This document shows, piece by piece, positions 4,640 through 56,580 of a stretch of 64,000 bases of DNA (positions are counted from its first letter, which is position 1; every line of letters starts with the position of its first letter). The stretch lies in NCBI GenBank assembly GCA_951406725.2, contig OX597823.1:69688001-69752000 (forward strand). The letters run 5' to 3'. A program made the position numbers and the translations under genes. Below the pieces are notes generated by a model, which ran no database searches, had not been told where the DNA came from, and saw only the letters and a program-made list of their open reading frames with translations. This stretch comes from Octopus vulgaris (taxonomy: Eukaryota).

Positions 4640-5869
4640 CGAGATGATATCAAGACGTTCCCGGACTGGTTATGTTTAATAAAAATAACTTATTTACCTA
4701 AGTTTAAACATCCTCTCCTTCGTAATAGTCACCCTGCGCAGCAAAATACCGGTCCCAGCGTTCTCTGCCACTTTTGGAATCCGGCCTGGAAGTTGTTTTC
4801 CACGAGCCAGTCGTGGGCCTTCTGCGATTTGCTCTTGATCTTGACAACAGTGTTAAAACAGCGACCTTGAGCAGCATTTTCATCTTGGGTAAGAGATGGA
4901 ATTCCACAGGTGCAAAATGTAACGAATAGGGCGGGTACGGAAGTGATACTATGTTCTTTTTGAGGGAGTAGTGCTCGGCGATAGAGTACATTGTCGTCGT
5001 GTAGAATCCAATTCTTCGCGCCCCACACATCCGGTTGCTTTCGCCGAATGTTCTCCCACAACTCCGCCAGTAGAATTCCCGATTAACGGTCTGGCTCTGG
5101 GGGACGAATTCTCTATGCACAGTACCGCAGATATCATAAAAAAAAGATAAGCATGCTTTTGATTGAACTGCGGCTCTACTGTGCCTACTCCGGTTGTGGA
5201 GATGAAATGATCTTCTACTGAGACGACTCTGCTTCGTCTAAGGGTCGTATCCGTACACCCAACTCTCGTTACCGGTGATGATACACGACATGAAGGAAGG
5301 GTCATCAGCGGGACACTGACGGAGATCTTGACAGACTTCGACGCATTGTACTTTCTGCTCAATGGTGAGCAGACGGGGGACGAACTTTATAGAATTTAAG
5401 ATTGGCTGCCCAGACCCATACGACAGACCAATAACATCAGCAATGTCATTGATTGTACTCAGACGATCTTGATGCACAAGCTGATGAATATCCTCCACAT
5501 TTCCGAAGGTGACGCACGTGGCAGGTTTTCCAGATCGCTTCTACTTTTCAAGGACCTGTGCCACTCAAAATATTGCGTACAACCCATTGCTTCGTCACCG
5601 TAAGTTTGCCGAAGCATGCTCAATTTTTTGGTATTAGACTATCCAAGTTTAACGCAAAATTTCACGTTGGCTTTTGTACCATCTTACTGTCCATGACAAA
5701 AATTGCAGATTACAGCATACAAATAATCACAAAATCACAAGTTTTACAACTTGCAAAGTGCACAAAGCGACGTCACTCGGCGCACTGCCTCATGAAAGTC
5801 ACTGCTAGCACTCATTGCACACGTTGGTGCGCTACGGACTAGTCCGGGGATCTTTTGACGCACCTGGTA
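4640..5869 (-). mobile_element. Full-length degenerate mariner (Tc1/mariner) transposon, about 1.23 kb
   Basis: Imperfect TIRs CGAGATGATATCAAGACGTTCCCGGACT (4640-4667) and AGTCCGGGGATCTTTTGACGCACCTGG (5841-5867), with TA at 5868-5869; encloses a broken transposase. Confidence 0.9.
4704..5694 (-). pseudogene. Mariner transposase pseudogene
   Basis: Fragments ANVKFCVKLG, FVPRLLT, IITGNESWVYGYDP, HREFVPQSQTVNREFY, WILHDDN, PYPPYSLHFAPVEFHLLPKMK (YSPDLAP motif) and QGDYYEG, spread across several frames. Confidence 0.9.
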
Positions 5870-40967: not shown

Positions 40968-41424
40968 TTTTCAGAATGAGATTAAAAGACCCAGGGTGTG
41001 AAGATTTTAGAACATTTATAAATTGGTCATACAGCCGTTTCCAGGATATTTATTAAATCATTTCGTTGGAGACGGTGTGAGAAAATGGTTAAGCAATAAT
41101 CAATTTAGATAAGATACGAAATAGTGAGTGAAGTGGAGAAAATAGATGTGAGATATGCAAGTATATTGCATTTGTAGATCTATTATTTGGGCAAATAAAT
41201 AATGGATCTACAAATGCAATATCCCTGCATATATCACATCTATTTTCATTCCTCCACTTCACTCTCTATTTTGTATCTTATCTAAATAATTATTGCTTAA
41301 CCATTTTCTCACACCGTTTCCGATGAAAGGATATAATAAATATCTTGGAAACAGCTGTAAGACCTTCTATTTGTAAATTTTCTAAAATCTTCACAACCTT
41401 GTGTTTTTTTATCTCATTCTGAAA
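40968..41424. repeat. Fold-back inverted repeat, arms about 220 bp, abutting (TAGA)n
   Basis: TTTCAGAATGAGAT...GCATTTGTAGATCTATTATTTG is mirrored by AAATAATGGATCTACAAATGC...ATCTCATTCTGAAA. Confidence 0.92.
41316..41363 (+). ncRNA. Minimal type I hammerhead candidate (U4C core, palindromic stem III)
   Basis: GTTT-CCGATGA-A-AGGATAT-AATAA-ATATCTT-G-GAAA-CAGCTG-TA-AGAC; a decayed mirror copy lies in the left arm at about 41025-41075. Confidence 0.7.
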
Positions 41425-41656: not shown

Positions 41657-41661
<5 letters not shown>

Positions 41662-42789
41662 CAAGGAAAAATTGTAAAAAGGCAGAATGCTAAATTGAAA
41701 GAAAATTTTAATGAAAATGGGTGTATGGAAAAAGTTTTTGAAAAATTGATAACATATACATATATATATTAATTCAAACTGGTTTTCGTCATAATGTGAC
41801 TTTTTCAAGAATTGTAAAGAAAAGAATTTTTTTTTAATGTGAGGAGGGGGGAAAAAAAGAAAATTACATTGTTTTTGGCAAAAAAATAAAAATAAATATA
41901 TACAAAAATTAAAAAATAGGTACTCCGATACATTGTAAAGTCTTTGTGTATCTTGAGTTTAATGATTGTTCACGAAAAAATTACCTTGAAGTATTGACAT
42001 CCAATGGGATTAAATCCATCTGTTGTTTAATTTAATTAAGGTTGTCTCTTAAGTGGATGCAAAACAGAAAGTAGTAGTAGTAGTCCAGTTCCTGTGTTGT
42101 GAATAAGGGGAGATAACTCTTTTGGGTTTTTTAAGCTCTTCAATTTGTGTTTGTTCAATTTTTTGTAATAAAGGATGTTAATAAACCTTAAATTATAAAA
42201 TTATCATTTTAGCTTCATTTGCATTATCTTTTTTATATAATTGTTTGCTAACTTAACATTCAGATTTTAACACTTTATTTATATTATTTTCTAATTATAT
42301 AAATTTGCATAAACCAATTTATAATTACATTTCAGATTGTTATGTCATATATAATAAAAATGATAGTAATAATAACAACAATAATAATAATGATATTTAA
42401 AGAATATAAGTTTTAGCTTGAAGTGATGACTGCATGGTATCCTTATATATTTGTTTTAGTCCATCCAAGAAGTATGATCAACGAGGAGTTTGCATATTAA
42501 GATGCGTTTTGAATTTTTCAATAAAGAGATTCTCCTTGTTAATTCTCTCCTGTGTGGTGATCCCGTCTTTACATTGATAGAAGGGGAATGGGAATTTGGG
42601 ATTTTTCTCTTTAGCGCATGAGTCTATGTGGTCACTCTGTGGGATTTGCCGGTATTCCGGGAGATTTACTTTTTTCCATACACCCATTTTCATAAAAAGT
42701 TTCTTTCAATTTAGCAATCTGCCTTTTTACAATTTTTCTTTGCTTATCATTTCTCCACGTGCGATCAACACAACCCCACCATTTATTGA

Positions 42790-42792
<3 letters not shown>
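41657..42792 (-). mobile_element. Penelope-like element copy A: 5'-truncated, with an inverted copy of its 3' tail
   Basis: 41657-42669 is the reverse complement of about 46827-47826 (encodes [16 protein letters not shown]...[12 protein letters not shown]); 42669-42792 is a plus-strand copy of the terminal about 120 bp; (TA)n on both sides. Confidence 0.92.
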
Positions 42793-42827
<35 letters not shown>

Positions 42828-46068: not shown

Positions 46069-46226
<158 letters not shown>

Positions 46227-46236
46227 ATATATATAT

Positions 46237-46282
<46 letters not shown>

Positions 46283-46284
<2 letters not shown>

Positions 46285-47020
46285 ACTATTACAACGCCAA
46301 TATCCCTCCACCCTTATAGAGTATGGAATAAAACGCGCAAAAGAACTGGACAACATTACACTGAAAACCACCCAACCCAACACCACACACAACCCCAAAA
46401 TACTTCCATACATTTCCAACCACAACCCCAAAAATACCGAAGCATACACCACAGTCATACAAAACCTCCTCAGTCTACTGTCAACAGACCCAAAAATGAA
46501 AAACATTATAAATACGCACAAAATCCTCAAATGTAAAAGGCAACACAAATCTTTAAAAAAATTCTTGACAAATGCCAAACTTCACACACTACATCCATCC
46601 CCAGCAGTTAAAAAATGTGCACGCCTAAACTGTGGCACCTGCCCCTTTCTACTTGAAGGCTCTGAATTTATCTTCAAAGAAGGAACGAAGTTTAAAATCA
46701 AGACCAACTTCTCCTGTTCCTCTGAGAACCTTATCTACGTTCTCACATGCGCTGGTTGCCAACATAATTATGTTGGACAAACGAGCCTCCCGTTACGTAA
46801 AAGAGTAGCGGTGCATAAAGAACAAATAAATCTCCCGGAATACCGGCAAATCCCACTGAGTGACCACATAGACTCATGCACTAAAGACAACAATCCCAAA
46901 TTCTACATATTCCCCTTCTACCAATGTAAAGACGGAATAACCACACAGGAGAGAATTAACAAGGAGAATCTCTTTATTGAAAAATTCAAAACGCATCTTA
47001 ATATGCAAACTCCTCGTTGA
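46283..47020 (+). CDS. C-terminal 245 codons of a Penelope-like ORF (RT thumb/linker plus GIY-YIG endonuclease); no native start codon
   Basis: Uninterrupted frame [22 protein letters not shown]...LPYISNHNP...[31 protein letters not shown]...[13 protein letters not shown]. Confidence 0.85.
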
Positions 47021-47676
47021 TCATACTTCTTGGATGGACTAACACAAATATATAAGGATACCATGCAGTCATCACCTCAAACTAAAACTTATATTCTTTA
47101 AATATCATTATTATTATTGTTGTTATTATTATTATTAGTTTTATTATATATGACATAACAATCTGAAATGTAATTATAAATTGGTTTATGCAAATTTATA
47201 TAATTAGAAAACAATATAAATAAAGTGTTAAAATCTGAATGTTAAGTTAGCAAACAATTATATAAAAAAGATAATGCAAATGAAGCTAAAATGATAATTT
47301 TATAATTTAAGGTTTATCAACACCCTTTATTACAAAAAACTGATAAACACAAATTGAAGAGCTTAAAACCCATAGAGTTGTCTCCCCTTATTCACAACAC
47401 AGGAACTGGACTACTACTACTTCCTGTTTTGCCATGCACTTAACAGACACACTTAATTTCAATTAAACAACACATGGATTTAATCCCATTGGATCTCAAT
47501 ACTTCAAGGTAATTTTTTCGTGAACAATCATTAAACTCAAGATACACAAAGACTTTACAATGTATCGGAGTACCTATTTTTTAATTTATATATATTTATT
47601 TTTATTTTTTGCAAAAAAACAATGTAATTTTCTTTTTTTCCCCCTCCTCACTTTTAAAAAAATTTGTTTTCTTTAC

Positions 47677-47718
47677 AATTCTTGAAAAGTCACATTATGA
47701 CGAAAACCGGTTTGAAGT
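47677..47718 (+). ncRNA. Minimal hammerhead candidate with U3-A8 core in the Penelope 3' repeat
   Basis: AATTC-TTGAAAA-GTCA-CATTA-TGAC-GAAA-ACCGGT-T-T-GAAGT; homologue at 41771-41813 (minus). Confidence 0.7.
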
Positions 47719-47874
47719 AACATATATATTTTATCAATTTTTCAAAAACTTTTCCATACACCCATTTTCATTAAAACTTTCTTTCAATTTAGCATTCTGT
47801 TTTTTTACAATCTTTCCTTGCTTATCATTTCTCCACGTGCGGTCAACACAACCCCACCATTTATTGATCTATAT

Positions 47875-47966
<92 letters not shown>

Positions 47967-47976
47967 ATATATATAT

Positions 47977-48066
<90 letters not shown>

Positions 48067-55259: not shown

Positions 55260-56580
55260 GTGCTAGCGTTGGTCTATTCACTGTGTTGATTTTTGACGAG
55301 TCGGATGGAATATTTTGGGCTGCTTAGCAGCGGTTTGTCAGTGAATGTTATACCGGTAGAAAAAATGTATTCAGACCTTAGCGAGTATGAGCTGTCCTCA
55401 GCAGAGGAGTTCGTTAAGGCGGTAAATAGAATGGACGAGCATTTGGAAAGATTAAAAAGTTTTGCTGAGGCTGCAGAGGTGAAGAAAAAGGAGGTGGACC
55501 TAGCCGGACTGAAGGAGCTGAGTAAGATGACACAGAAGGTGGGCGGTGACGTAAAGTTACTACCCACGAAAAGGGTCATGGAAAATATGGAAAAGAAGAC
55601 CATTACCTGCAAGGTGTACTCAGTGGAGAGTAGGAAGGTGGAGCGGATGGAGATGGAAAAAGTTGAAAAGGCATTGAAGGGGCTTTCGAAAGAAGTAACA
55701 TACTTAGCGAAAGGAAATGGATATGGGACGATGGTTGTCCAGTTTAAGACAGCGAAGGAGGCAAAGAGGCTGGCGAGGGCAAATGTAAAAACGGAGGAAG
55801 TGGTACTTCTACCTACGAAGCTTGGAAAAAGATTTCTAAGATGAGGCTAGAAGAAATTCCACCCAATATAGAAGTGGTTTGAGTTGCGACAGCCGTCCTC
55901 GTTGGAAGTGAGGAGGAGGTGGCTGTCCTCTAAGCCATGGAAACGGAGGATGGAGAGGAAAACACTGAACCTCATTATACAGGCAGAGAAGAGGTAATTG
56001 GAGAGTTTGGTGGAGACGGTGACGTTGGGAGAGATTGTGCTAAGAGTGTGGGTGGAGTGCAGGATCCCACGATGTTTTAAATGTGGCCAAAAGGGCCACG
56101 TTAGAGCGCACTGCCCTCTGCAGAGGAAAACGACAGAAGAAGCGGTGGTGGAGACGGAGGAAAAACAGGAAGAAGTACAGATAGATGGAAGGAACAAGGA
56201 GGATGACTGGACAGTGACAGAGAATAAAAGGAAAAAGAGAAAGAAGAGGAAGAACAGTTAGTGTGATGTGAGACCCCAGACCAACTCCAACTCGCCCCAG
56301 ACCACTCTGATCACCCTTCCCATACAGACACCAAACCCACCCACCCCCTCTCCTCACAGGAAAAAAAGAAAAAGAACAGACACCACAACATTTACCAGAC
56401 CCCTCCCCCACCGTGAAAAAAGGTTACGTGTACATGGAGGAGAGAGTGTTGTCACTCAGCGATGGGGGGAAACGGTAAACAAAAGAGATGAATGACTAAA
56501 GAGGACTCGGGACTCAGAGGTGGCGAGTAGTGTTACTCAGTGTGGGGTGAGTAACACACGTTTTATATTCTCATTTCTCT
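55260..56580 (+). mobile_element. Tx1/L1-like ORF1 (gag-like, CCHC zinc knuckle) element lacking ORF2
   Basis: ORF 55293-55844 continues past a stop (LEEIPPNIEV) and a frameshift into LRVWVECRIPRCFKCGQKGHVRAHCP, then the basic W..TENKRKKRKK; no endonuclease or RT follows. Confidence 0.75.

Follow-up and report, generated by a model that had tools for sequence, protein, structure and literature searches.

The window analysed here, a stretch of 64,000 nucleotides of Octopus vulgaris DNA, contains 42 bases that can be read as a small hammerhead ribozyme with U at core position 3 and A at position 8. The question raised by this locus is whether these bases are such a ribozyme, to which element they belong, and whether they could cut RNA. 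We consider, with a probability of roughly 0.7, that they form a minimal hammerhead with a U3-A8 core in the terminal repeat (pLTR) of a Penelope-like element (PLE) of Neptune/Nematis type, that the motif is conserved family-wide and would, by prediction, cut RNA only when dimeric, and that the copy at this locus, carried in a truncated insertion, is likely dead.

The motif parts described by the first-pass annotation were all located at 47677-47718 (Table 1). In terms of the type I PLE hammerhead, the focal copy shows the core boxes, G12 A13 A14, A15.1-U16.1 and the U3-A8 pair, and U17 agrees with H17 at the cut site. Its helix III palindrome, through which a dimer would form, is intact. Stem I is 5 bp long in the family, where 4-5 bp is expected, and the focal copy is mismatched at the fourth pair. 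Its stem I 3' strand, GAAGT, occurred in 1 of 28 copies parsed from 30 loci, the sole carrier being the focal copy itself. A relaxed scan for the core, stem II and GAA found five further matches inside the window, so the core alone is weak evidence. An Rfam search of the window gave no hammerhead among the 150 listed of 187 matches, and the listed ones were mostly microsatellite noise. Both results, together with the short and AT-rich nature of the motif, speak for a reading in which a hammerhead-like string arose by chance and was copied along with a young repeat; the family data below bear on this reading.

Table 1. Positions of the focal hammerhead motif, the second copy and the insertions that carry them, in coordinates of the window.
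Feature	Position	Strand	Remarks
Minimal type I hammerhead motif, U3-A8 core	47677..47718	+	Private stem I mismatch at 47717; predicted cut 47713/47714
Stem I 5' strand, AATTC	47677-81	+	
Core box 1, TTGAAAA	47682..47688	+	U3 U4 G5 A6 A7 A8 A9
Stem II, GUCA/UGAC, with 5-nt loop	47689..47701	+	Strands 47689-92/47698-701; basal pair G10.1-C11.1
GAAA, ACCGGT and TT	47702..47713	+	47702-05, 47706-11 and 47712-13; G12-A15.1, self-complementary helix III (AACCGGUU) and U17
Remnant of RT-EN frame, 245 codons, 5'-truncated	46283..47020	+	CX4CX2C linker and GIY-YIG endonuclease (PF01541, E 4.8e-05); no RT, no start
3' UTR/pLTR with hammerhead	47021..47822	+	First of two family 3' ends near 47822
Optional PLE tail, ~47 nt	47823..47870	+	Followed by (TA)n target
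Second independent truncated insertion, same subfamily	41657..42674	-	93% identical over 1023 columns
Second hammerhead copy	41771..41813	-	Extra A after core, perfect stem I, broken palindrome (ACCAGT)
Inverted pLTR end with tail, joined to second insertion	42672..42802	+	Typical PLE inverted structure

The motif had been tied to an element with an open ORF. A 245-codon frame with a GIY-YIG endonuclease does lie ~660 nt upstream of the motif, but it is a 5'-truncated remnant and not a complete ORF. Considering that this frame begins at a (TA)n run without a start and without RT, the focal element was inserted in 5'-truncated form. The (TA)n runs on its two sides (46086-46282 and 47870-48066) share similar CCA interruptions, and they are possibly a long duplicated target blurred by slippage. 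On the minus strand of 47733-47870, antisense to the pLTR end and tail, a short frame is present that we take, by eye, to resemble a PLE RT-thumb motif. In a copy elsewhere in the genome (L087), RT is followed by a GIY-YIG endonuclease at the C-terminus (PF00078 and PF01541), of which the window copy has the endonuclease only. The motif is found in both pLTRs: L073, L076 and L088 carry a 5' and a 3' copy, and L089 carries a 5' copy upstream of ORF1. The family is large in this genome of 2.8 Gb and 227 contigs, with at least 150 scored protein matches, all at least 91% identical and at least 20 of them in open frames of at least 753 codons. The linker in the window ORF reads CARLNCGTC, (TA)n flanks the insertion, and a tail and an inverted/tandem pLTR arrangement are present, with two 3' ends ~47 nt apart. 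A CX2-5CX2C linker, (TA)n targets, a tail and inverted pLTRs are given for Neptune/Nematis-type PLEs in excerpts of bioRxiv 2021.04.23.441226, and the octopus element would fit a Neptune/Nematis-type EN+ PLE, a clade name taken from motifs only. No named reference PLE protein appeared among the 120 protein matches listed.

Family-wide conservation was examined with a pattern of core and stem II that allowed C or U at position 3 and G or A at position 8, and its reversed form served as the control. The pattern gave 941 exact genome matches against 1 for the control, which excludes a chance origin. Among the first 100 listed of these 941 matches, 98 were U3-A8 and 2, from one locus, were C3-A8. 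A C3-G8 version with the same stem II had 0 matches in the genome, meaning that no direct C3-G8/U3-A8 switch was seen within the family. When 30 loci were chosen by the endonuclease protein alone, 29 showed U3-A8 at the expected place. Core position 7 is A, C or U depending on the subfamily (A, B or C), and the window copies belong to subfamily A.

According to the first-pass annotation, its proposal would fail if the motif were no more conserved than the surrounding 3' region. We ran this comparison, and the motif passed it, both among the subfamilies and in the sister family described below. Between A, B and C, using the 75 of 120 copies that were long enough to align, none of the 24 columns of core, stem II and palindrome was substituted, compared with 96 of 621 flank columns (one-sided Fisher P=0.019), a modest P value from copies that were picked by the motif pattern and are biased towards conservation, with longer invariant runs of 40, 27 and 26 columns present elsewhere in the UTR. 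The free columns (N7 and loop II) changed between subfamilies in 4 of 6 cases (P=0.0005), and the two stem I changes between subfamilies constitute one compensatory pair. A low rate of private mutations in the motif was discarded as evidence, because the copies had been selected by the motif.

Stronger evidence of conservation than these columns comes from sister family D, whose ORF is ~69% identical in nucleotides and whose 3' UTR is not alignable with A, B and C. Family D keeps the core and the palindrome, and its stem II is compensated to GCUA/UAGC, with at least 4 bp in 20 of 22 D motifs. Across families, stem II with its G10.1-C11.1 pair covaries as GUCA/UGAC, GCUA/UAGC and GCUG/CAGC. A relaxed search (95 matches against 16 for the control) supplied 52 motifs from 50 loci, of which 32 have a stem II of at least 4 bp, as against a mean of 3.1 after shuffling; the motifs do not count as independent events, since related D copies make up 22 of the 52. 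An alignment of the families by MAFFT came out in the wrong register and was left out of the results. That the motif was kept with compensated stems in a family whose UTR does not align already contradicts the reading of a chance string copied with a young repeat. In addition, the changes are concentrated at N7 and loop II, and the motif lies where PLE hammerheads have been published to lie; we regard such a chance string as extremely improbable. On the basis of these comparisons, we read the motif as a family trait under constraint in both core and stems. Position and family data together bear out what was proposed at first pass, namely a minimal type I hammerhead with a U3-A8 core in the pLTR of a Penelope element.

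The second copy in the window had been described as having the same core, one extra A and a perfect AATTC/GAATT stem I, and this description holds, but the defect in its palindrome had gone unmentioned. The self-duplex energy of the second-copy palindrome is 0.0 kcal/mol, compared with -10.1 kcal/mol for the intact 8-mer. Each window copy is defective in its own way, the focal copy by its stem I mismatch and the second by its broken palindrome. By structure prediction, an intact subfamily-A copy folds as a double hammerhead through the palindrome; in the predicted dimers of the window copies, stem I is missing for the focal copy and helix III for the second. The second insertion, including its inverted end piece, spans 41657-42802. 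Since the two copies belong to independent insertions on opposite strands, one transcript cannot yield a double hammerhead from both, and in this respect, as in that of the truncated ORF, the first-pass annotation went too far.

One could suppose that the window copy is nevertheless a ribozyme, active or co-opted, with a host transcript as its target. On the one hand, its core, stem II and palindrome are intact, and the self-pairing of helix III is kept in the predicted dimer. On the other hand, the stem I mismatch is private to this copy and stem I is lost in the predicted dimer. The sole neighbour copy, whose palindrome is broken, lies on the other strand; the focal element is truncated, and signs of special conservation were not seen. 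We consider an active or co-opted window copy very unlikely; both window copies are probably inactive.

Several other features of the window were recorded. An open frame of 184 codons at 55290-55844 (+) has no significant Pfam match and may be a retroelement ORF1 fragment. A frame at 4704-5237 (-) resembles, by eye, what we presume to be a decayed mariner-type transposase. At 41146-41239, a near-perfect palindrome inside a small inverted-repeat element (~40970-41420) was matched only by unrelated miRNA models.

The proposed mechanism concerns intact members of the family. Helix III would arise from palindrome pairing between two motif copies, as predicted here and following the mechanism in excerpts of PMC4209133. 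Such a dimer would process a longer transcript to unit length by slow cutting, perhaps together with the protein of the element. The predicted cut lies 173 nt upstream of the ORF1 ATG in full-length relatives, and the genomic 3' ends lie ~110 and ~155 nt downstream of the cut site. Among 21 long copies with a scorable upstream pLTR, 16 span the 5' motif, 5 start downstream of it and 0 start within 5 nt of the cut, so that 5' ends did not accumulate at the cut site in these copies (9 of 30 loci had no scorable upstream pLTR). Because the 3' ends are downstream of the cut and the 5' motif is spanned by most long copies, integration does not start at the cut, and RNA that is uncut or re-ligated likely serves as the template. 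This end pattern agrees with the internal RT start described in excerpts of PMC11167929, or with a re-ligated circular template.

The cut site itself differs within the lineage. In subfamily B (e.g. L091), the palindrome and stem I are separated by one U fewer, and this UU form has 621 exact matches compared with 282 for the UUU form. Family D (e.g. L169) likewise lacks one U, with 18 of 22 motifs going directly from the palindrome to stem I; both subfamily B and family D are outside the standard H17 register of the type I PLE hammerhead. In a tree of the endonuclease region, built from 34 distinct copies picked by the motif pattern and rooted on D, A is basal, followed by C and an intermediate UUU copy, and then by B. 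This order argues that the loss of the U is derived in B, which is the youngest and commonest subfamily. The UU form was also present in one contig from another organism's sequencing run, which argues against an assembly error. In terms of the hammerhead fold, the UU form could be either a motif in which N17 is missing and no cut occurs, or one in which the fourth A counts as an insertion in GAAA.

The loss of a U at the cut site, both in the youngest and commonest subfamily and in family D, favours a reading in which the fold is conserved for a non-cutting role, for example in RNA dimerisation or as a binding site for the element's protein, and catalysis is weak or dispensable. The finding of no 5' ends at the cut points in the same direction, as does the statement in excerpts of PMC11167929 that cleavage is unnecessary for insertion in vitro; excerpts of PMC4209133 leave roles other than cleavage open. 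However, the catalytic core letters, and not only the stems, are invariant across A-D, and the UU form is readable as a GAAA insertion, with a natural U13a insertion tolerated according to excerpts of PMC3088659. We judge a purely non-cutting role to be unlikely, although it deserves real weight, and we prefer the reading of a hammerhead that cuts as a dimer.

The full-length elements also differ from canonical EN+ PLEs in their coding layout, having two overlapping frames and not a single ORF. An ORF1 without a Pfam match overlaps the RT-endonuclease frame at a UUUUUUA heptamer (region G000:C1:90016351-90016511 for L089 and L270, and also L073, L076 and L088). At 21 junctions in 30 loci, the upstream frame stops 11 or 16 codons past UUUUUUA, and a stop of the -1 frame precedes the heptamer by 11-12 codons; in many copies, single-base indels blur the frames. 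An ORF1 homologue, with pieces 42-63% identical, is present in family D as well (L236, L239 and L249). In 8 of 25 loci, D also has the same U run, with AGAC after it, at the corresponding place, and the remaining loci are mostly truncated or decayed. From this arrangement of frames, ORF1 and the RT-endonuclease frame are likely joined by a programmed -1 ribosomal frameshift. A search without pseudoknots found no stimulatory structure after the slippery site (z -1.2 to +1.1). This layout may be known already, considering that a figure legend of PMC8557442 refers to a frameshifted ORF1 in some PLE types. A literature search for Penelope-like elements with ribosomal frameshift and pseudoknot, covering mostly papers outside subscription, found nothing, which does not imply absence from print.

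Other motif families in the genome carry other palindromes, namely UACGUA, AGCGCU and AUCGAU. Family G, with the AUCGAU palindrome and a canonical C3-G8 core, has 217 exact matches (e.g. L205, G000:C1:62960584), and the first 100 listed of these comprise 88 C3-G8, 8 C3-A8, 2 U3-G8 and 2 U3-A8. We rejected family G as a second U3-A8 family, the 2 U3-A8 copies among these 100 representing decay; PLE protein similarity was found nearby in 1 of 25 loci. In family E, U3-A8 occurs in 6 of 9 motifs, and weak RT similarity adjoins 2 loci. A link of family E to PLEs is tentative, the nearby RT similarity being weak and limited to these loci. A tandem array of 50-nt units at G000:C23:42842934-42843721 (L142-L150), each with CUGAUGA, a 4-bp hairpin, GAAA, a second GAAA and an ACCGGU palindrome, is possibly a decayed retrozyme-like hammerhead satellite.

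Taken together, we tentatively put forward, at somewhat less than even odds, that this PLE lineage twice arrived at a hammerhead with one nucleotide too few at its cut site. Such a hammerhead would either still cut by means of an additional A in GAAA, alongside U3-A8, forming a natural double core variant, or be a selected non-cutting fold, and the same elements would make their RT-endonuclease by a -1 frameshift from an unannotated ORF1. A single genome contains a natural allelic series, consisting of UUU (A and C), derived UU (B), an independent UU family (D) and canonical C3-G8 (G). With this series, one could test directly if cutting by PLE hammerheads is required for the element's spread. 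Should B not cut and yet be the most recently amplified lineage, cleavage would be dispensable in vivo; if B cuts, a further core variant would be tolerated that is missed by current descriptors.

In comparison with known systems, the novelty that the first-pass annotation implied for U3-A8 is not supported. U3-A8 in natural hammerheads is stated to be active in vitro in excerpts of Perreault et al. 2011 (PMC3088659), and for PLEs, excerpts of Cervera and De la Pena 2014 (PMC4209133) describe it in the pLTRs of Schistosoma mansoni Cercyon elements, with ~1,300 matches. A literature search for octopus hammerhead ribozymes, again mostly among papers outside subscription, found no matching title or abstract, and absence from print is not implied. 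The PMC3088659 variants resemble the octopus motif in the U3-A8 covariation and in a tolerated insertion in GAAA. They differ, as far as those excerpts go, in a context other than PLE pLTRs and in the position of the insertion, which is U13a there, whereas the UU forms here would need an extra A.

In the anole Poseidon element PAc, as described in excerpts of Frangieh et al. 2024 (PMC11167929), hammerhead mutants were without effect on in vitro insertion, no RNA-seq ends were seen at the hammerhead site, and RT starts internally. PAc and the octopus family are alike in having a hammerhead near the ORF start and in an arrangement in which internal RT start sites correspond to two 3' ends and a tail. 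On the other hand, PAc is a Penelope/Poseidon element with C3-G8 and a single ORF, whereas the octopus family has a CX4CX2C linker and two overlapping frames. From excerpts of PMC4209133, the PLE hammerheads of Aedes, Drosophila and shrimp share with the octopus motif a short stem I and a helix III that is self-complementary over 6-8 nt, but their listed rows are C3-G8, unlike the U3-A8 found here.

The closest likeness is with Cercyon, for which excerpts of PMC4209133 give a type I motif in pLTRs, U3-A8, G10.1-C11.1, a palindromic 15.2-16.2 region, U17 and a predicted dimer, all of which have counterparts in the octopus family. A supplement row of that paper, S. mansoni(4), shows a UUGAAAAA core with a GUU site. 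The two systems differ in stem II, which is 4 bp in the octopus family and 7-8 bp in Cercyon, and in the palindrome, which is longer in the octopus family. An extra nucleotide between 9 and 10.1 is a Cercyon feature that is absent in the octopus family and was seen only in the second window copy. Judged from its sequence, the U3-A8 core described here is a further host and a further family for a published variant.
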